64,000 nucleotides of DNA from Shigella phage TB004. Numbering within the stretch: position 1 is the stretch's first letter; each line of letters begins with the position of its first letter. Location of the stretch: the sequence record MW822011, one strand, 5' to 3'. Shown piece after piece: positions 3,527-63,016 of this stretch. The notes beneath the pieces were generated by a model. That model was given only the letters and a program-made list of their open reading frames with translations, had not been told where the DNA came from and made no database searches. Made by a program: the position numbers and the translations under genes.

Positions 3527-4273
3527 ATGAAACTGTCTAAAAATCAAATTCGTAAAATTACACGTCGTTTAGAGCACACCCAGGCATCTGCCAAAAGACG
3601 TTCTAAAGATTTTAACTTAGACTTCAATTACATTAAGAACATTTTAGATCAGAAAGTTTGCGCTTACTCGGGAGAACCTTTTGATAATCGTATTGAAGGA
3701 GAGAAATTATCATTAGAACGTTTTGATAATAACGTTGGATACATTAAAGGGAATGTTATTGCAGTAAAGAAAAAGTATAATACATTTCGTTCTGATTATA
3801 CTTTAGAAGAGTTGATTGAAAAGCGTGATTTATTTGCTTTGCGAATTGGTCGTTCATCTGCGAAAAAAGTTCATAAACTAAATTTAGATGAAAAGAAATG
3901 GGCTAAAATCAAAAAGACTTATAATCAAATTAAAGCTATACAGAAAAAACGTGAAAACCGAATTGAGCACATTTCTCAGCTTTCTAAATCAAAACAAACT
4001 TCTGACGTTAAGCTAACGATTATAGCACTCAAAGCTCGTATTGATGGTTCTCGTATAGCAGAAGGCGCTGAAGTTGTTAAATTGAACGTTCTTCTTAAAG
4101 GCTCGGATTGGAAAACTGTGAAAAAGTTGTCAGAAGCAGAAATGCAATATGATATGTGTGATAAAATTATTCAAGGTGTAGAGCGGTATCAAAATTTGTC
4201 TTTTATTGATAAACTTAAACTGAAAAGAGGATACCCACTAAATTGTTCAATTTTTAAACTTATCCGAGGATAA
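3527..4273 (+). CDS. srd: Srd-like early protein (248 aa), assigned by synteny between modA and dda
   Basis: ORF track; position and size correspond to T4 srd; basic, lysine-rich. Confidence 0.4.
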   Translation: MKLSKNQIRKITRRLEHTQASAKRRSKDFNLDFNYIKNILDQKVCAYSGEPFDNRIEGEKLSLERFDNNVGYIKGNVIAVKKKYNTFRSDYTLEELIEKRDLFALRIGRSSAKKVHKLNLDEKKWAKIKKTYNQIKAIQKKRENRIEHISQLSKSKQTSDVKLTIIALKARIDGSRIAEGAEVVKLNVLLKGSDWKTVKKLSEAEMQYDMCDKIIQGVERYQNLSFIDKLKLKRGYPLNCSIFKLIRG

Positions 4274-4274
4274 T

Positions 4275-4586
4275 ATGTTTTATGTATATGCGATAGTGTA
4301 TAGAGATAAAGATGGATTTGCGGTGCCTGTTCCTCTTGATGAACATCGTCCTGCTGTATTTTTTGAAAGGGAGATTGCTGATAAAGTATTTACTGCTCTT
4401 AAAGAGCAGTATCGACTAGCTTTAGGTATGGGAATTCCGAGATTAGTTGAGACTCCACGCAAGTTTTGGTTTAATAAAATAGAAGTTAAACACGTTAAGC
4501 CTGATGTAGACACGCAAAGATTATATCGGCGAATTTTAGATACTGGGCGTATTGTTAGTATACCAATTGCAGGGAATTTACGATGA
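4275..4586 (+). CDS. hypothetical protein at the dda.1 position (103 aa)
   Basis: ORF track; synteny. Confidence 0.55.
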   Translation: MFYVYAIVYRDKDGFAVPVPLDEHRPAVFFEREIADKVFTALKEQYRLALGMGIPRLVETPRKFWFNKIEVKHVKPDVDTQRLYRRILDTGRIVSIPIAGNLR

Positions 4587-5902
4587 CATTTGATGATTTG
4601 ACCGAAGGCCAGAAAAATGCCTTTAACATCGTTATGAGGGCTATTAAAGAAAAGAAACATCATGTAACTATTAATGGACCTGCTGGTACTGGTAAAACTA
4701 CTCTTACTAAGTTCATCATTGAAGCCTTAATATCTACGGGCGAAACTGGCATTATTTTAGCAGCTCCTACTCATGCAGCTAAAAAGATTCTTTCAAAACT
4801 GTCAGGGAAAGAAGCGAGTACTATTCACAGTATTCTTAAAATTAACCCAGTAACATACGAAGAAAACGTTCTTTTTGAACAAAAAGAAGTACCGGATTTA
4901 GCTAAATGCAGAGTATTAATCTGCGACGAAGTGTCAATGTATGATAGAAAGCTATTTAAAATTCTGCTTTCAACTATCCCGCCGTGGTGTACTATAATTG
5001 GAATAGGCGATAATAAGCAAATTAGACCTGTTGACCCAGGAGAAAATACTGCTTATATCAGTCCATTCTTTACGCATAAAGATTTTTATCAGTGTGAACT
5101 CACTGAAGTTAAACGCAGTAATGCTCCTATTATTGATGTAGCTACTGATGTTCGTAGCGGTAAGTGGATTTATAATAAAATTGTTGACGGACATGGAGTA
5201 CGTGGATTTACTGGTGATACTGCTTTACGCGATTTTATGGTAAATTATTTTTCAATCGTAAAATCACTAGATGATTTGTTTGAAAATCGTGTAATGGCAT
5301 TTACGAATAAATCTGTTGATAAGTTAAATAGCATTATTCGTAAAAAGATTTTTGAAACTGATAAAGATTTTATTGTCGGTGAAATTATTGTAATGCAGGA
5401 ACCATTAATTAAAACATATAAAATTGATGGAAAGCCTGTGTCAGAAATTATTTTTAATAACGGACAATTAGTTCGTATCATAGAAGCAGAGTATACATCA
5501 ACATTTGTTAAAGCTCGTGGTGTTTCTGGAGAATATCTAATTCGTCATTGGGATTTAACAGTAGAAACTTACGGCGATGATGAATATTATCGTGAAAAGA
5601 TTAAAATAATTTCATCTGATGAAGAGCTGTATAAGTTTAACTTATTTTTAGGTAAAACGGCAGAAACTTATAAAAATTGGAATAAAGGTGGAAAAGCCCC
5701 GTGGAGTGATTTTTGGGATGCTAAATCACAGTTTAGTAAAGTGAAAGCACTTCCTGCATCAACATTCCATAAAGCTCAGGGCATGTCTGTAGATCGTGCT
5801 TTCATTTATACACCTTGTATTCATTATGCAGATGCTGAATTAGCTCAGCAGCTTCTTTATGTTGGTGTCACTCGTGGTCGTTATGATGTATTTTATGTAT
5901 GA
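4583..5902 (+). CDS. dda: Dda DNA helicase (439 aa)
   Basis: Walker A GPAGTGKT, SF1 helicase motifs; length equals T4 Dda. Confidence 0.95.
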   Translation: MTFDDLTEGQKNAFNIVMRAIKEKKHHVTINGPAGTGKTTLTKFIIEALISTGETGIILAAPTHAAKKILSKLSGKEASTIHSILKINPVTYEENVLFEQKEVPDLAKCRVLICDEVSMYDRKLFKILLSTIPPWCTIIGIGDNKQIRPVDPGENTAYISPFFTHKDFYQCELTEVKRSNAPIIDVATDVRSGKWIYNKIVDGHGVRGFTGDTALRDFMVNYFSIVKSLDDLFENRVMAFTNKSVDKLNSIIRKKIFETDKDFIVGEIIVMQEPLIKTYKIDGKPVSEIIFNNGQLVRIIEAEYTSTFVKARGVSGEYLIRHWDLTVETYGDDEYYREKIKIISSDEELYKFNLFLGKTAETYKNWNKGGKAPWSDFWDAKSQFSKVKALPASTFHKAQGMSVDRAFIYTPCIHYADAELAQQLLYVGVTRGRYDVFYV

Positions 5903-5923
5903 TTAAATTTGAGGAAGCTATTC

Positions 5924-6169
5924 GTGGAAATAACTAAAGATCAGTTTTATCTTCTTCAAGATAAAGTAAGCGAAATTTATGAAATAGCTTATAGCAAAAA
6001 TCGCAAAAATGTGAAAACTGAATCAGGCAAGTTAATGCTTCAATTGGAAGAAATTGAACGAGATTTGATTGCGTTAGAATTCTTTTGTGGTGAAGTAAAA
6101 ACTGTTACAATCAGTGATTATGTTTTAGGTGAAATTAGCTATCTTTATAAGGCGGTTATTAATGATTGA
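5924..6169 (+). CDS. hypothetical protein at the dexA.2 position (GTG start)
   Basis: ORF track frame 5909..6169; GTG at 5924 after gaggaag SD; paralog of the next ORF. Confidence 0.45.
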   Translation: MEITKDQFYLLQDKVSEIYEIAYSKNRKNVKTESGKLMLQLEEIERDLIALEFFCGEVKTVTISDYVLGEISYLYKAVIND

Positions 6170-6404
6170 ATTAAGTTGGTGGCAGTTTAAATCTCTTATG
6201 ACAAATGTTAAAGATGTCATTGAAGAAAATCCAGGTCCTGAAAATATTACTATTCGCGAAAAAGCTTCAAAGATAGTATACAGTCTTGAAGAGATACAAA
6301 AAGACATTGAATCTGTGGCAAAATTTATTGATGAGCCCATTAATAAAGTTTATATTCAAGACTATACTGTAGGTCAAATTCGCGATTTAGCAAGGAAAAT
6401 TTAA
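6162..6404 (+). CDS. hypothetical protein at the dexA.1 position (80 aa)
   Basis: ATG at 6162 overlapping upstream stop; similar to previous ORF (LEEIxxDl ... yvxDYtvGqI). Confidence 0.45.
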   Translation: MIELSWWQFKSLMTNVKDVIEENPGPENITIREKASKIVYSLEEIQKDIESVAKFIDEPINKVYIQDYTVGQIRDLARKI

Positions 6405-7087
6405 TGTTTGATTTTATTATAGATTTTGAAACAATGGGAAGCGGTGAAAAGGCAGCTGTTATTGATTTGGCTGTTATTGCCTTTGACCCTAATCCAGAAG
6501 TCGTTGAAACATTCGATGAATTAGTTTCACGCGGCATTAAAATCAAATTTGATTTAAAAAGCCAAAAAGGACATCGTCTTTTTACTAAAAGCACTATTGA
6601 ATGGTGGAAGAACCAATCTCCTGAAGCTCGAAAAAATATTGCACCATCAGATGAAGATGTGAGCACTATCGATGGTATTGCAAAATTTAATGATTACATC
6701 AATGCACACAATATCGATCCTTGGAAATCTCAAGGTTGGTGCCGTGGAATGTCGTTTGATTTTCCAATTTTAGTCGATCTCATTCGTGATATTCAACGCC
6801 TTAATGGTGTATCTGAGAATGAGCTTGACACATTTAAGTTAGAACCATGTAAATTCTGGAATCAGCGTGATATTCGTACCAGAATTGAAGCACTTCTACT
6901 TGTTCGTGATATGACAACGTGTCCCCTTCCAAAGGGAACTTTAGATGGATTTGTTGCGCATAATTCTATTCATGACTGTGCGAAAGACATCCTGATGATG
7001 AAGTATGCTTTGCGATATGCTATGGGTCTTGAAGATGCTCCATCAGAGGAAGAGTGCGATCCTCTGTCTCTTCCAACAAAACGATAA
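6404..7087 (+). CDS. dexA: exonuclease A, DexA (227 aa)
   Basis: N-terminus MFDFIIDFETMG; length equals T4 DexA; DEDD-type exonuclease. Confidence 0.9.
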   Translation: MFDFIIDFETMGSGEKAAVIDLAVIAFDPNPEVVETFDELVSRGIKIKFDLKSQKGHRLFTKSTIEWWKNQSPEARKNIAPSDEDVSTIDGIAKFNDYINAHNIDPWKSQGWCRGMSFDFPILVDLIRDIQRLNGVSENELDTFKLEPCKFWNQRDIRTRIEALLLVRDMTTCPLPKGTLDGFVAHNSIHDCAKDILMMKYALRYAMGLEDAPSEEECDPLSLPTKR

Positions 7088-45819: not shown

Positions 45820-47408
<1,589 letters not shown>

Positions 47409-47411
47409 GCT

Positions 47412-47465
47412 GTTTACAAGTCCCTCGTGTTGTGTTATAGTAATCTTACTGACATAACATGAGGA
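47412..47465 (+). promoter_or_regulatory. 54-bp early promoter / imperfect palindrome cassette upstream of alc (copy A)
   Basis: gtttacaagtccctcgtgttgtgttatagtaatcttactgacataacatgagga; near-identical to 61671-61724. Confidence 0.6.
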
Positions 47466-47472
47466 CTTTATG

Positions 47473-47976
47473 ATGGATTTACAGCTTATTACTACTGAAA
47501 TGGTCGTTGAAGCATACGGTGATACTACAGATGGGATTTCTGTATTTAAAGGAAATCGTCGAGTTGGATATATCACCGATCTTAAGAAAGATTTAGCTAA
47601 GCAAGTCAAGCGGAAAACGACCATTAAAGAATATCGAAATCGTCGTCTTGAGCAAGCCCGTGATATGCTTCCTGATGCAGTTGAGGAGATGAAAGTCTTT
47701 TTAGAAAATCAGCTTGCGAAATATGATTGTGATGTGTTCATTAATCAGACTCAACCTAATGTTCATATTAACAACTGTAAATGCTATATCATCGTTAATC
47801 CTTTGACGGGAAAACATCGTCTTGGAATTAGTAATCCAAATCGTAGCGCATCAGATATGGCAGAAGATGTTGAGGCATGCTTTAAAATTTCTAAATCTCC
47901 GGCTGAACATCATATTTTAATTAACGGTCTTTCTCAAGACGATATTGTAGAGGTTATTAAAACTTTATGCAATTAA
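47473..47976 (+). CDS. alc: Alc, host transcription unfolding/termination factor (167 aa)
   Basis: MDLQLITTEMVVEAYGDTTDGISVFKGNRRVGYIT; length and position between rnlA and pseT. Confidence 0.85.
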   Translation: MDLQLITTEMVVEAYGDTTDGISVFKGNRRVGYITDLKKDLAKQVKRKTTIKEYRNRRLEQARDMLPDAVEEMKVFLENQLAKYDCDVFINQTQPNVHINNCKCYIIVNPLTGKHRLGISNPNRSASDMAEDVEACFKISKSPAEHHILINGLSQDDIVEVIKTLCN

Positions 47977-57289: not shown

Positions 57290-57558
57290 TGTTTGTCGTT
57301 CACACTATTTATGAAAATGAAGGTAATACTACACGTGATTACGGTCACGTAAATCAATTTTTTAGATGCAATCCAGAATTCCGAGCTCAAAAAGACGAAC
57401 GAATTTTTAAAAAATGTGTAGAGCAAGGTTTCATTTACGTCAAGCATTGGATGCAAGGAAATAAAGTTAGAACTACATATCATAAGTCTTTGCCTGAGCT
57501 TAATGATGAATTGATTTATAATAGAGCTGTAAACCAAACCTTGAAGGATGAGCAATGA
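57289..57558 (+). CDS. hypothetical protein (89 aa)
   Basis: ORF track. Confidence 0.45.
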   Translation: MFVVHTIYENEGNTTRDYGHVNQFFRCNPEFRAQKDERIFKKCVEQGFIYVKHWMQGNKVRTTYHKSLPELNDELIYNRAVNQTLKDEQ

Positions 57559-59018
57559 TTCTTAAAATTCTGAATGAAATAGCATCTATTGGATCAACTA
57601 AGCAGAAGCAAGCAATTCTTGAAAAGAATAAAGATAATGAATTGCTTAAACGGGTATATCGTCTGACTTATTCTCGTGGGTTACAGTATTATATCAAGAA
57701 ATGGCCTAAACCTGGTATTGCTACCCAGAGTTTTGGAATGCTGACTATTACCGATATGCTTGACTTCATTGAATTCACGTTAGCTACTCGGAAATTGACT
57801 GGAAATGCAGCAATTGAGGAATTAACTGGATATATCACTGATGGTAAAAAGGATGATGTTGAAGTTTTACGTCGAGTTATGATGCGAGACCTTGAATGCG
57901 GTGCTTCAGTATCTATTGCAAACAAAGTTTGGCCAGGTTTAATTCCTGAACAACCTCAAATGCTGGCAAGTTCTTATGATGAAAAAGGCATTAGTAAGAA
58001 TATCAAGTTTCCAGCTTTTGCACAGTTAAAAGCAGATGGAGCCCGGTGTTTTGCTGAAGTTCGAGGCGATGAATTAGATGATGTTCGTCTTTTATCACGA
58101 GCTGGTAATGAATATCTAGGATTAGATCTTCTTAAGGAAGAATTAATCAAAATGACTGCTGAAGCCCGCCAGATTCATCCAGAAGGTGTGTTAATTGATG
58201 GCGAATTGGTATACCATGAGCAAGTTGAAAAAGAGCCAGAAGGCCTAGATTTTCTTTTTGATGCTTATCCTGAAATTAGTAAAGCTAAAGAATTCGCCGA
58301 AGTAGCGGAATCTCGTACTACTTCTAATGGAATCGCCAATAAATCCTTAAAAGGAACCATTTCTGAAAAAGAAGCTCAATGCATGAAGTTTCAGGTCTGG
58401 GATTATGTCCCGTTGGTAGAAATATACGGTCTTCCGGCGTTTCGTTTAAAATATGATGTACGTTTTTCTAAACTAGAACAAATGACATCAGGATATGATA
58501 AAGTAATTTTAATTGAAAACCAGGTAGTAAATAACCTAGATGAAGCTAAGGTAATTTATAAAAAGTATATTGACCAAGGTCTTGAAGGTATTATTCTCAA
58601 AAATATCGATGGATTATGGGAAAATGCTCGTTCAAAAAATCTTTATAAATTTAAAGAAGTAATTGATGTTGATTTAAAAATTGTAGGAATTTATCCTCAC
58701 CGTAAAGACCCTACTAAAGCAGGTGGATTTATTCTTGAATCAGAGTGTGGAAAAATTAAAGTAAATGCTGGTTCAGGCTTAAAAGATAAAGCCGGTGTAA
58801 AATCACATGAACTTGACCGTACTCGCATTATGGAAAACCAAAATTATTATATTGGAAAAATTCTAGAGTGCGAATGCAACGGTTGGTTAAAATCTGATGG
58901 CCGCACTGATTACGTTAAATTATTTCTTCCAATTGCGATTCGTTTACGTGAAGATAAAACTAAAGCTAATACATTCGAGGATGTATTTGGTGATTTTCAT
59001 GAGGTAACTGGTCTATGA
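57555..59018 (+). CDS. 30: ATP-dependent DNA ligase gp30 (487 aa)
   Basis: MILKILNEIASIGSTKQKQAILEKNKDNELLKRVYRLTYSRGLQYY; adenylation motif KADG (AQLKADGARC); length equals T4 ligase. Confidence 0.95.
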   Translation: MILKILNEIASIGSTKQKQAILEKNKDNELLKRVYRLTYSRGLQYYIKKWPKPGIATQSFGMLTITDMLDFIEFTLATRKLTGNAAIEELTGYITDGKKDDVEVLRRVMMRDLECGASVSIANKVWPGLIPEQPQMLASSYDEKGISKNIKFPAFAQLKADGARCFAEVRGDELDDVRLLSRAGNEYLGLDLLKEELIKMTAEARQIHPEGVLIDGELVYHEQVEKEPEGLDFLFDAYPEISKAKEFAEVAESRTTSNGIANKSLKGTISEKEAQCMKFQVWDYVPLVEIYGLPAFRLKYDVRFSKLEQMTSGYDKVILIENQVVNNLDEAKVIYKKYIDQGLEGIILKNIDGLWENARSKNLYKFKEVIDVDLKIVGIYPHRKDPTKAGGFILESECGKIKVNAGSGLKDKAGVKSHELDRTRIMENQNYYIGKILECECNGWLKSDGRTDYVKLFLPIAIRLREDKTKANTFEDVFGDFHEVTGL

Positions 59019-59203
59019 AAGCTTACTTAGAAACAATTGTCGTGGCTCAAAAAGAAGGTGGAGATGTTTCTACTTCTGTATCACAAATCGTTCTTGAATT
59101 TGTAGATGCATATGCTTATAATAAATTCACAGAAACATTTGATGCCTATGAAAAAGGTCCAAAGTTTGAAATATATCGTACTCTCTTACCATTAGATTAT
59201 TAA
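59015..59203 (+). CDS. hypothetical protein (62 aa)
   Basis: ORF track; ATGA overlap with ligase. Confidence 0.45.
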   Translation: MKAYLETIVVAQKEGGDVSTSVSQIVLEFVDAYAYNKFTETFDAYEKGPKFEIYRTLLPLDY

Positions 59204-59224: not shown

Positions 59225-59232
59225 TATAAATA
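59225..59232 (+). promoter_or_regulatory. late promoter TATAAATA upstream of alt
   Basis: ttttataaatagaat about 30 nt upstream of alt ATG. Confidence 0.5.
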
Positions 59233-59261
59233 GAATAAGAATAAACACTAGAGAGGATATG

Positions 59262-61310
59262 ATGGAACTCATTACAGAATTATTTGACGAAGATACTACT
59301 CTTCCGATTACAAACTTAAATCCAAAGAAGAAAATACCGCAAATTTTTTCAGTTCATGTTGATGACGCAATTGAACAACCAGGCTTTCGTTTATGTACCT
59401 ATACATCTGGAGGTGATACTAACCGTGATTTAAAGATGGGCGATAAAATGATGCATATTGTTCCTTTTACATTAACTGCTAAAGGTTCAATTGCTAAATT
59501 AAAAGGTCTCGGTCCAAGCCCAATTAATTACATCAATTCAGTTTTTACTGTTGCGATGCAGACGATGCGGCAGTATAAAATTGATGCCTGCATGCTTCGT
59601 ATTCTTAAGTCTAAAACTGCTGGTCAAGCTCGACAAATTCAAGTTATTGCTGATAGACTTATCCGTAGTCGTTCAGGTGGCAGATACGTCCTTCTTAAGG
59701 AACTCTGGGATTATGATAAAAAGTATGCATATATTCTTATACATCGCAAAAATGTATCACTAGAAGACATTCCAGGAGTTCCGGAAATTAGTACCGAGCT
59801 CTTTACTAAAGTTGAATCGAAAGTCGGCGATGTTTATATCAATAAAGATACTGGAGCTCAAGTAACTAAAAATGAGGCAATTGCAGCATCTATCGCACAA
59901 GAAAATGATAAACGTTCTGACCAAGCTGTTATTGTTAAAGTTAAAATTTCCCGTAGAGCAATTGCGCAAAGTCAATCATTAGAATCTTCTAGATTTGAAA
60001 CACCAATGTTTCAAAAATTTGAGGCTTCAGCAGCAGAATTAAATAAACCCGCCGACGCGCCTTTAATTTCTGATGCTAACGAATTAACTGTTATTTCTAC
60101 TTCAGGATTTGCATTAGAGAATGCTCTTAATAGTGTTACAGCTGGAATGGCATTCAGAGAAGCTTCTATAATTCCTGAAGATAAAGAATCTGACGTTAAT
60201 GCAGAAATAAAAAATAAAGCTTTAGAAAAATTACGAAAAGAATCTATTACTTCAATAAAAACTTTAGAAACTATTGCTTCTATCGTCGATGATACTTTAG
60301 AAAAATATAAAGGTGCTTGGTTTGAAAGAAATATTAACAGACATTCGCATTTAAACCAAGATGCTGCAAATGAGTTAGTACAAAATTCTTGGAATGCAAT
60401 AAAAACAAAGATTATTCGAAGAGAATTACGTGGATATGCTCTTACCGCTGGATGGTCATTACATCCTATAGTCGAAAATAAAGATTCATCTAAATACACA
60501 CCAGCGCAAAAACGCGGAATTCGTGAATATGTAGGTTCAGGATATGTAGACATGAATAATGCTCTTTTGGGATTATATAATCCAGATGAGCGTACAAGTA
60601 TTTTAACAGCACCTGAAATAGAACAAGCCATTGATAATTTAGATTCAGCCTTTAAAAATGGTGAACGATTACCAAAAGGTATTACTTTGTATCGTTCACA
60701 ACGAATGTTACCTTCAATATATGAAGCACTGGTAAAAAATCGAGTTTTTTATTTTAGAAATTTTGTATCAACATCATTATATCCAAACATTTTTGGTACT
60801 TGGATGACTGATTCAGCTGTGGGTGTTTTACCAGATGAAAAGCGTCTAAGCATTTCTGTCGATAAAAATGATGAAGGGCTTGTTAATTCTAGCGATAATT
60901 TAGTTGGAATTGGATGGGTTATTACTGGAGCTGATAAAGTCAATGTTGTTTTACCCGGTGGAAGTTTAGCACCTTCAAATGAAATGGAAGTCATTTTGCC
61001 ACGTGGATTAATGGTCAAAGTCAATAAAATAACTGATGCATCTTACAACGATGGAACAGTTAGAACTAACAACAAGCTTATTCAAGCTGAAGTTATGACC
61101 ACAGAAGAACTCACCGAATCGGTAATTTATGACGGTGACCGTTTAATGGAAACTGGTGAATTGGTTACAATGACAGGTGATATAGAAGATAGAGTTGACT
61201 TTGCATCGTTTGTTTCATCAAATGTTAAACAGAAAGCAGAATCATCTCTTGGAATTATTGCGTCTTGCATAGATATTGCAAACATGCCTTACAAGTTCGT
61301 TCAAGGATAA
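59262..61310 (+). CDS. alt: Alt, packaged ADP-ribosyltransferase (682 aa)
   Basis: MELITELFDEDTTLPITNLNPKKKIPQIF; length equals T4 Alt; ART core in the C-terminal half. Confidence 0.9.
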   Translation: MELITELFDEDTTLPITNLNPKKKIPQIFSVHVDDAIEQPGFRLCTYTSGGDTNRDLKMGDKMMHIVPFTLTAKGSIAKLKGLGPSPINYINSVFTVAMQTMRQYKIDACMLRILKSKTAGQARQIQVIADRLIRSRSGGRYVLLKELWDYDKKYAYILIHRKNVSLEDIPGVPEISTELFTKVESKVGDVYINKDTGAQVTKNEAIAASIAQENDKRSDQAVIVKVKISRRAIAQSQSLESSRFETPMFQKFEASAAELNKPADAPLISDANELTVISTSGFALENALNSVTAGMAFREASIIPEDKESDVNAEIKNKALEKLRKESITSIKTLETIASIVDDTLEKYKGAWFERNINRHSHLNQDAANELVQNSWNAIKTKIIRRELRGYALTAGWSLHPIVENKDSSKYTPAQKRGIREYVGSGYVDMNNALLGLYNPDERTSILTAPEIEQAIDNLDSAFKNGERLPKGITLYRSQRMLPSIYEALVKNRVFYFRNFVSTSLYPNIFGTWMTDSAVGVLPDEKRLSISVDKNDEGLVNSSDNLVGIGWVITGADKVNVVLPGGSLAPSNEMEVILPRGLMVKVNKITDASYNDGTVRTNNKLIQAEVMTTEELTESVIYDGDRLMETGELVTMTGDIEDRVDFASFVSSNVKQKAESSLGIIASCIDIANMPYKFVQG

Positions 61311-61313
61311 ATC

Positions 61314-61699
61314 ATGGAACTTATTACAGAATTATTTGACGGCGCTTCGGCGCCGGTTGTTAACTTAAATCCTAAGCATAAAATACCACAAATTTTTGCT
61401 ATTCAAGCCGGCGAAGAAAGCGTGCTTCCTGGATTTAGATTTTGTACATACACCTCTGGCGGTGATACGAATAAAACGTTAAGCCGGGCGATAAAATGAT
61501 GCATATCGTAATGATAGGTGTTAATGAGAAACTATCATTAGTTAAGCTTAAAAACTTGGGTGGAAATCCAATTGGTGTCATTAATGCTGTTTTTGATACT
61601 GCTCTTCAAACAATGAAACAGTATAAAATCGACGCATGCCTATTACGCGTACTAAAAAGTTCAAAATGTAGTTTACAAGTCCCTCGTGTTGTGTTATAG
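61314..61699 (+). pseudogene. frameshifted tandem duplicate of the alt 5' region (Alt N-terminal fragment in two ORFs)
   Basis: MELITELFDGASAPVVNLNPKHKIPQIF ... FCTYTSGGDTN then frameshift, then MMHIV ... TALQTMKQYKIDACLLRVLKS; parallels Alt residues 1-120. Confidence 0.6.
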
Positions 61700-61724
61700 T
61701 AGTCTTACTGACATAACATGAGGA
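61671..61724 (+). promoter_or_regulatory. 54-bp early promoter / imperfect palindrome cassette (copy B)
   Basis: gtttacaagtccctcgtgttgtgttatagtagtcttactgacataacatgagga; one mismatch versus 47412-47465. Confidence 0.6.
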
Positions 61725-61731
61725 ACACAAA

Positions 61732-62022
61732 ATGAAATCTTCTTTACGCTTTTTAGGTCAAGAACTTGTAGTTGAAGGCGTTATTCCTGCTGATAACGCT
61801 TTTAATGAAGCGGTTTACGACGAATTTATCAAAATTTTTGGAACAGATAAAAAGTTCGGAATTTTTCCTTCTGAAAATTTTTCAAAGCCAGAACAGACTG
61901 AAAGCATTTTCCAAGGTGTAGTAACAGGTAAATTTGAGTCAGAAGCTCCGGTAAAAATTGAAGTTTATATTGAAGACAATTTAGTTGCTTCAGTTGCTGC
62001 TTTTATTTCATTCCGTAAATAA
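61732..62022 (+). CDS. hypothetical protein (96 aa)
   Basis: ORF track; SD within the cassette (gagga). Confidence 0.5.
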   Translation: MKSSLRFLGQELVVEGVIPADNAFNEAVYDEFIKIFGTDKKFGIFPSENFSKPEQTESIFQGVVTGKFESEAPVKIEVYIEDNLVASVAAFISFRK

Positions 62023-62026
62023 AAAT

Positions 62027-62048
62027 ATGGGGACCGAAAGGTCCCCAT
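62027..62048. terminator. bidirectional hairpin terminator between convergent genes
   Basis: atggggaccgaaaggtccccat. Confidence 0.55.
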
Positions 62049-62050
62049 TG

Positions 62051-63016
62051 TTATATTGCTCCTAATATTTTACTTTGCGAGTTGACAATTCCCGTCATAG
62101 TATTAATGTTTGAAATGCTTCCCGCAGTTCCTCCTAATCTACTAAGTCGTGAAAGCGAATTAGATAGTCCAGTAACACCTCCACTATTTCCGAGAACGCT
62201 TTGAATGCCATTTATAGCAGCAGATTCAAGCCACTCAAGCGCAGCTTGTCTATCAACCGACCCAGCCTGCATGACTCTATACGCAAAAGTAACATCAAAT
62301 GTAGTTATTTGGTTATCTCCATCATATGATAACTCAGGAGCGCTCACTGACACTGGAATGCATCCAGTGAACATCACCGCAGTATGAGGTAATCCATTAC
62401 GAGCATGAAGATTAACCTGAATATCTGCCTCGACATCTTGTGGCAAAGCACGCAATCCAGTTACTGGGTCTTGAACAGCGTTAACCCAGTCTTGCATTGC
62501 ACGATAGTTACAAGCTTCTGAATCCATTCTAAATGAAATAACCAAAGGGTCTAATTCTCTCCCAGTTATACGAATATTAGGAGAATTATAGTTCCAGTCA
62601 GTTTCATAGGATAATCTATTCTCTGGCATTTTTACGGAATATATCATCAATCCAGATGAGTTATATGCCATGTTAAAGAAGTCAATTAAATATGTACCAA
62701 CTGTAAATGAGCCCAATAAACTTTGAACTGTACGTTGACTCATGGCACCAATAAGATATTTACTAACCCCTGATTTTCTTATCAGTTTTTGTGTGCCAGC
62801 AGTAATTAGCGTGGTAATTCCCTGATTAATATCGCCTTGAGTCAATCCTAACCAATCTGAATTTAGGCCCAAGTTATTATAAGAAAAGTTGCTAATTGAA
62901 CTTATCAACGAAGAGCTTTTAGTTGATGGAGTTGTCGCAAAAACGCAGCTAAACATATTATTACGTTGGAAATCTGCGTTTATTGCTTGATTATTAAATT
63001 CCTCTAAAGAATACAT
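62051..63016 (-). CDS. 54: baseplate tail-tube initiator gp54 (321 aa)
   Basis: size and position next to alt and gene 48 as in T4. Confidence 0.8.
   Translation of the reverse strand: MYSLEEFNNQAINADFQRNNMFSCVFATTPSTKSSSLISSISNFSYNNLGLNSDWLGLTQGDINQGITTLITAGTQKLIRKSGVSKYLIGAMSQRTVQSLLGSFTVGTYLIDFFNMAYNSSGLMIYSVKMPENRLSYETDWNYNSPNIRITGRELDPLVISFRMDSEACNYRAMQDWVNAVQDPVTGLRALPQDVEADIQVNLHARNGLPHTAVMFTGCIPVSVSAPELSYDGDNQITTFDVTFAYRVMQAGSVDRQAALEWLESAAINGIQSVLGNSGGVTGLSNSLSRLSRLGGTAGSISNINTMTGIVNSQSKILGAI

Follow-up and report, generated by a model that had tools for sequence, protein, structure and literature searches.

The two small open reading frames that follow alt in Shigella phage TB004 (MW822011) are very probably what is left of a non-functional and recently inactivated pseudogene. 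They occupy positions 61314-61699 of the 64,000-nucleotide stretch we analysed (the window), and the segment corresponds to 348 nt from the 5' end and 11 nt from the 3' end of a second alt-like ADP-ribosyltransferase gene in tandem, which we name alt2. Compared at the sequence level, alt2 is an old paralogue of alt that has been evolving separately from it. The feature is already known, since this pseudogene remnant is on record for T4, whose genome is the best studied among phages. What we add is the precise position of the breakpoints, the repeat found at the junction, and the intermediate alleles with their frequencies.

The gene order at the locus is that of T4T. According to the ORF list and the T4T annotation, gene 30 (DNA ligase, 57555-59018), alt.1 (59015-59203) and alt (59262-61310) all lie on the + strand, and the alt stop codon is the TAA at 61308-61310. 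The alt gene is full-length and encodes an ADP-ribosyltransferase of 682 aa, in which residues 374-614 match Pfam PF03496 (ADPrib_exo_Tox, E=1.3e-33). The small ORFs are on the alt strand, directly downstream of alt and ahead of alt.-3 and gene 54. The right-hand boundary of the remnant is set by alt.-3 (61732-62022, + strand), an intact gene encoding a 96-aa DUF5498 protein (Pfam PF17602, E=6e-64; also annotated in T4T). It has its own early promoter and is conserved across all relatives examined. Genes 54 and 48 lie downstream of alt.-3 on the opposite (-) strand, as given by the ORF list and the T4T annotation. A 901-nt region around the feature matched 503 phage records, nearly all of them Tequatrovirus. 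At the nucleotide level the best match was Salmonella phage Lv5cm (99.1% identity), and T4 was 97.2% identical.

The resident alt gene has some features of its own. It starts with two consecutive in-frame ATG codons at 59259-59264 (ATGATGGAA); the T4T form is 682 aa long and the ORF finder returned 683 aa. A propeptide of 7 residues (PMC9026906) would fit the MMELITE at this start. The middle of the gene (60076-60489) gave no blastn-level alignment with T6 alt, the 5' end aligned at 93.5% and the 3' part at approximately 81%. Since only the flanks align to T6 alt, the gene is a mosaic whose hypervariable central part separates the N-terminal region from the ART domain. When Alt was searched by sequence against the PDB, only CdtA-type ART domains were matched, at residues 406-479. 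These matches miss the N-terminal region and thus give no structural clue to the role of residues 1-117.

Both small ORFs were taken from the ORF list and are orthologous to the T4 genes of the same names. The first, alt.-1 (61314-61499, + strand), starts 3 nt past the alt stop and encodes 61 aa (MELITELFDGASAP...). It consists of the former codons 1-54 of the second alt gene, followed by 7 out-of-frame codons and a TGA stop. The second, alt.-2 (61496-61699, + strand), overlaps alt.-1 by ATGA and encodes 67 aa (MMHIV...LRVLKSSKCSLQVPRVVL). It starts at an internal Met-Met of alt2 (...GDKMMHIV...) and comprises the former codons 62-116, followed by 12 out-of-frame codons that extend into the promoter cassette of alt.-3. 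In BLASTP, alt.-1 was 63% identical to Alt residues 1-57 (E=6e-24) and alt.-2 was 62% identical to Alt residues 63-117 (E=2e-21). As judged from these alignments, the similarity of both ORFs to Alt is far above chance. A Pfam search at E<=0.01 found no domain in alt.-1 or alt.-2; Alt and T6 alt2 both match PF03496. The original prediction had described a second alt-like start 3 nt after the alt stop, a frame shift with continuation as MMHIV, a parallel to Alt residues 1-120 and an end within a 54-bp promoter cassette. This description was accurate. The start is at 61314, the frame shift is caused by one missing A, the parallel is significant on alignment and alt.-2 stops within the cassette at 61671-61724.

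An intact second gene occupies the same site in T6 and T2. In both phages a 685-aa ORF lies between alt and alt.-3 (BBF63615.1 in T6, BBF63359.1 in T2), in the same orientation and, by ORF and Pfam evidence, at positions 4001-6058 of the respective comparison sequence (L003 for T6, L004 for T2). T6 alt2 matches PF03496 ADPrib_exo_Tox at residues 416-620 (E=1.6e-19), and its amino-acid identity to Alt is approximately 48% overall and 63% at the N-terminus. Over the first 348 nt of T6 alt2, 336 positions are identical in the remnant (96.6%), with one amino-acid difference across codons 1-116. By contrast, only 236 of 353 nt (67%) are identical between the remnant and the 5' end of the resident alt. 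The remnant can therefore be neither a recent nor a partial copy of the adjoining alt gene. The original prediction, which had called the segment a duplicate of the alt 5' region, was thus right that it is alt-related and frameshifted, but the segment is the leftover of a full 685-aa second alt gene after a deletion.

The intact gene is also widespread. In a tblastn search, approximately 402 phage records (34+363+5) contained a full-length match to T6 alt2 with an identity of at least 90%, and the intact gene is mostly annotated as 'hypothetical protein'. The T4-type junction described below occurs in only 89-90 phage records, indicating that intact alt2 is the majority state and that the T4 state is a derived minority.

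The larger of the two lesions is a deletion of 1699 bp. By blastn and direct reading, window positions 61314-61660 correspond to T6 4001-4348 and window positions 61652-62063 correspond to T6 6039-6450. T6 alt2 contains two copies of a 9-bp direct repeat, CTAAAAAGT (4340-4348 and 6039-6047). A single copy survives in the window, and comparison with T6 places the deletion junction there (61652-61660, + strand). The missing stretch between the repeats starts at codon 117, ends approximately 3 codons short of the alt2 stop and contains the ART catalytic domain. Beyond the junction, the last 11 nt of alt2 are retained at 61661-61671 on the + strand (TCAAAATGTAG, reading ...F K M stop in T6) and are now out of frame. 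As 1699 is not a multiple of 3, the frame past the junction runs on through the promoter cassette to a TAG at 61697-61699.

The junction, at which …CGCGTACTAAAAAGT meets TCAAAATGTAG…, has the same sequence in the window, in T4T and in 10 further sequences. It was counted in 89 records by short megablast of a 49-nt query centred on it against GenBank phages, at a coverage of at least 80%. When IMG/VR was scanned for the exact junction, just 2 contigs matched, which does not suffice to survey the population. From the flanking repeats, we infer that the deletion arose by replication slippage or illegitimate recombination. Recombination via the 54-bp promoter cassette was also considered as its cause and was rejected, since the junction lies inside coding sequence.

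The second lesion is a single-nucleotide frameshift. The intact gene of T6 and T2 reads AATAAAAAC at this position, whilst the window, T4 and Lv5cm read AATAAAAC, one A having been lost. The resulting A4 run is at 61473-61476 (+ strand) and aligns with A5 in T6, T2, fPS-2, SG1, N2 and SYGD1. The A4 allele is identical in T4T, Lv5cm, slur14, pSe_SNUABM_01, HY03, F1, PD112 and two IMG/VR contigs. Programmed ribosomal frameshifting that would rejoin alt.-1 and alt.-2 was rejected, as on inspection AAT AAA ACG is no slippery heptamer and the A5 and A4 runs coexist with stop-codon alleles.

An alignment was made of 14 junction-bearing sequences, the window included. N2 and SYGD1 carry the deletion only and have one 128-aa ORF. 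The deletion is combined with the A4 frameshift in T4T, Lv5cm, the window and the two IMG/VR contigs, and with a GAA to TAA change at codon 6 in fPS-2 and SG1, which keep A5. Deletion, frameshift and codon-6 stop are all present in slur14 and pSe_SNUABM_01. On top of these three lesions there is a 7-nt tandem duplication in HY03, a 9-nt deletion in F1 and, in PD112, a T-run shortened by a 1-nt deletion. The annotators of fPS-2 label their own copy a 'putative pseudogene' in the record.

The codon-6 TAA allele was counted by short megablast of GenBank phages, using a 42-nt query centred on the TAA such that every 28-mer seed included it. It was present in 45 records, approximately half of the 89 junction carriers, with the junction checked individually in part of the 45. 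The spacing from the TAA to the junction was 326 nt with A4, 327 nt with A5 and 325, 317 or 333 nt where extra indels are present, in agreement with the alignment. The TAA falls on Glu-6 (window 61329-61331), the Glu of I-T-E, and the ORF ends there as MELIT. The motif (L/I)-x-E is the cleavage motif of gp21, and this protease would be expected to cleave an Alt-type propeptide at that Glu.

The sequences have one junction in common but differ in several secondary lesions of independent origin, which is the pattern of a pseudogene and indicates that the deletion preceded the other lesions. Of the options raised in the original prediction, that of a decaying paralog is the right one. In the course of events we propose, the deletion between the CTAAAAAGT repeats would have removed alt2 from codon 117 onward, including the catalytic domain. 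Its product would be the 128-aa ORF that is still present in N2 and SYGD1. Loss of one A from the A5 run would then have split this ORF into alt.-1 and alt.-2. The remnant is probably still transcribed, and its ORFs retain the ribosome-binding site of alt2 along with a fortuitous internal Met-Met, with any products presumably not under selection.

Several observations bear on expression of the remnant. A late-promoter motif (TATAAATA) lies upstream of alt at 59225, and we found no terminator-like site on the + strand from alt to the bidirectional terminator hairpin that a terminator scan placed at 62027-62048, between alt.-3 and gene 54. Given this motif and the lack of an intervening terminator-like site, alt transcripts can probably run through and the remnant is probably transcribed. 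The alt.-1 ORF keeps a good Shine-Dalgarno (AAGGA), which is the old alt2 ribosome-binding site. In T4, RNA of both alt.-1 and alt.-2 has been detected and was classed as middle (Class_Tx; PMC9697503 Table S2). The Alt.-1 and Alt.-2 proteins were undetected in the T4 infection proteome (Class_P = NA) and Alt.-3 was detected early in infection (PMC9697503 Table S2). Shotgun non-detection of peptides of 61-67 aa is weak negative evidence. Each of the two proteins has unique tryptic peptides, such as IPQIFAIQAGEESVLPGFR for Alt.-1 and NLGGNPIGVINAVFDTALQTMK for Alt.-2.

Directly before alt.-3 lies the 54-bp cassette, which combines an early promoter with a hairpin (61671-61724, + strand; 10/12 with TG in the promoter scan). 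It contains a -35 element TTTACA at 61672-61677, a -10 element TATAGT at 61695-61700 and a Shine-Dalgarno GAGGA at its 3' end, and the alt.-2 stop TAG falls within the -10 element. The hairpin of this copy has a predicted energy of -23 kcal/mol (z=-4.1). The cassette recurs at 47412-47465 with 1 mismatch, and matches were found in 0 of 100 shuffles. Across both copies the hairpin is at -23 to -24.5 kcal/mol, with z about -4, and the promoter spacer pairs with the downstream Shine-Dalgarno. On this folding model, read-through transcripts would hide the Shine-Dalgarno, whilst transcripts from the cassette's own promoter would not. The second copy precedes a 168-aa ORF (47470-47976), which we take to be alc, and itself follows a 401-aa ORF (46203-47408), presumably RNA ligase 1 (gene 63); both assignments are based on the order of genes in T4 and on the translations. 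In all junction phages, the cassette at 61678-61700 (…AAGTCCCTCGTG…) has 3-4 differences from T6 6065-6090 (…AAGTTCCTTATG…TATAAT), and their alt.-3 cassette is almost identical to the window copy at 47412. This pattern hints at gene conversion between the copies, or at a haplotype linked to the deletion.

The alternative that survives best is that functional small proteins, one or two in number, are made from the remnant; a peptide with the N-terminal propeptide of Alt, for instance, could be directed to the prohead core or could compete with Alt or with the gp21 protease. We consider this alternative highly unlikely. In the window alt.-1 starts MELITE, as Alt does, and so keeps an I-x-E motif of the kind cleaved by gp21. 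This protease has a cleavage logo and removes a propeptide of approximately 7 residues and a C-terminal piece from Alt (PMC9026906). The retained alt2 ribosome-binding site, late transcripts from TATAAATA with no terminator-like site on the way, the RNA detected in T4 (PMC9697503) and a synonymous to non-synonymous ratio of 10:1 relative to T6 also fit a functional product. However, TAA replaces the Glu-6 codon in 45 related records and cuts alt.-1 short, compared with 89 records that have the junction. Likewise alt.-2 is broken by the 7-nt duplication in HY03 and the 1-nt deletion in PD112, frameshifted and unshifted versions coexist, neither protein was detected in T4 (PMC9697503) and approximately 400 relatives carry the intact gene instead.

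The capsid-targeting role that had been suggested for this segment fares no better. A capsid-targeting sequence of approximately 10 aa has been demonstrated for IPIII and is identical in IPII and similar in IPI (PMC9958956; PMC9026906). It is reported as 'not conserved in other core proteins', and the entry of other proteins into the core, Alt included, 'remains mysterious' (PMC9958956; PMC9026906). Experimentally, the signal has been demonstrated only for IPIII, and the original prediction that Alt residues 1-120 carry it is not established. Its second option, a source of a short capsid-targeted peptide, is unsupported given the codon-6 stop in 45 records, the extra indels in alt.-2 and the absence of either peptide from the T4 infection proteome.

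The pattern of substitutions is in line with recent inactivation. With its frame restored, the window remnant differs from T6 alt2 at 10 synonymous codons and 1 non-synonymous codon, indicating that most of the divergence arose while the gene functioned or on the intact lineage, and that the inactivation is young. Taken alone, a ratio of 10:1 resembles purifying selection, but young lesions would give it just as well, with most of the divergence older than the lesions or on the intact lineage. Among 12 remnants compared, a small sample, there were approximately 17 synonymous to 7 non-synonymous variable sites with the stop counted, which is mildly suggestive of relaxed constraint. Several of the remnant variants are common to the intact T2 and T6 alleles, which suggests recombination. 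The counts are too few and too confounded by recombination for a formal selection test. A narrower form of the functional reading is that the truncated N-terminal fragment became a selected micro-protein in the T4 sublineage, either as the 128-aa ORF or as Alt.-1/Alt.-2, with the broken alleles as secondary losses. Such a micro-protein might dock on the scaffolding core via its Alt-type N-terminal region and modulate packaging of Alt or other cargo. We give this even less credence than functional small proteins in general.

A partial tandem duplication, in which the resident alt was copied over no more than its first ~350 nt and the copy later diverged, is less probable again and is contradicted by our results. 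It is the reading of the RefSeq entry for T4 (NC_000866), where the note refers to an 'old duplication of the first part of gene alt, into which a stop codon and new ...', and the homology indeed covers only Alt residues 1-117. Against it, the remnant matches a full-length paralogue at the same locus in T6 and T2 far better than it matches the resident alt (96.6% compared with 67%), and it retains 11 nt of the 3' end of that paralogue. Furthermore, both breakpoints fall on copies of a 9-bp direct repeat of the intact gene, and this gene is the majority state (approximately 402 compared with 89 records). The reverse scenario, in which the T6-type gene is a later fusion onto a T4-type fragment, is implausible because that gene resembles Alt from end to end and contains an ART domain. 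The GenBank note for T4T states that alt.-1 and alt.-2 'together reflect a deletion and further frame shift in the second copy of gene alt'. Both ORFs are also given as paralogous to alt by Nolan et al. 2006 (PMC1524935). We favour the T4T wording over that of RefSeq T4, which is less accurate.

That A4 is a homopolymer assembly or sequencing error and that the window truly holds one 128-aa ORF can practically be dismissed: A-runs are typical error sites and A5 alleles exist in N2, SYGD1, fPS-2 and SG1, but A4 recurs in all the genomes and contigs listed above (T4T, Lv5cm, slur14, pSe_SNUABM_01, HY03, F1, PD112 and two IMG/VR contigs), RefSeq T4 annotates the same two ORFs, the adjacent deletion junction is found in numerous T4 records deposited separately, and even an unshifted gene would be without the 1699 bp. 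The full second alt gene that the original prediction envisaged behind such an error is thus not hidden in the window, but it does exist in relatives.

The pseudogene and its relatives together give a full decay series, from the intact gene through deletion only, to frameshift and/or stop, and on to further indels. It is an example of gene loss in the T-even hyperplastic region. The intact alt2 is of more interest than the remnant. Based on sequence similarity, approximately four-fifths of Tequatrovirus genomes carry a second, apparently intact ADP-ribosyltransferase of the packaged type, which the model phage T4 is without. Our literature search gave nothing on alt2 targets or packaging.

In comparison with known systems, the closest counterpart of the window remnant is T4 alt.-1/alt.-2 (NP_049810 and NP_049809; P39495 and P39494). 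The two share position, ORFs of 61 and 67 aa, the A4 frameshift and the junction. They are separated by only a few point substitutions, most of them synonymous when read in the former frame, and the window is nearer to Lv5cm than to T4 itself. The intact alt2 of T6 and T2 shares locus, orientation, stop codon and the downstream alt.-3 promoter with the remnant. Unlike that gene, the remnant is without 1699 bp, including the ADPrib_exo_Tox domain, and has a 1-nt deletion in the A-run at codon 54/55. T4 Alt itself, a packaged NAD-protein ADP-ribosyltransferase (PF03496), shares the N-terminal 117 residues at 62-63%, and both start MELITELFD. In contrast to Alt, the remnant is without a catalytic domain or an uninterrupted ORF, and nothing indicates that a protein is made from it. 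Finally, the cassette at 61671-61724 resembles the PeSL cassettes of T4-like phages (Arbiol 2010, PMC2839356; Comeau 2014, PMC4122927), in which an early-type promoter and a stable stem-loop likewise form a genomic repeat. The cassette does not bound the alt2 deletion, whose endpoints are the CTAAAAAGT repeats inside the gene, and the junction lies 11 nt upstream of the cassette.
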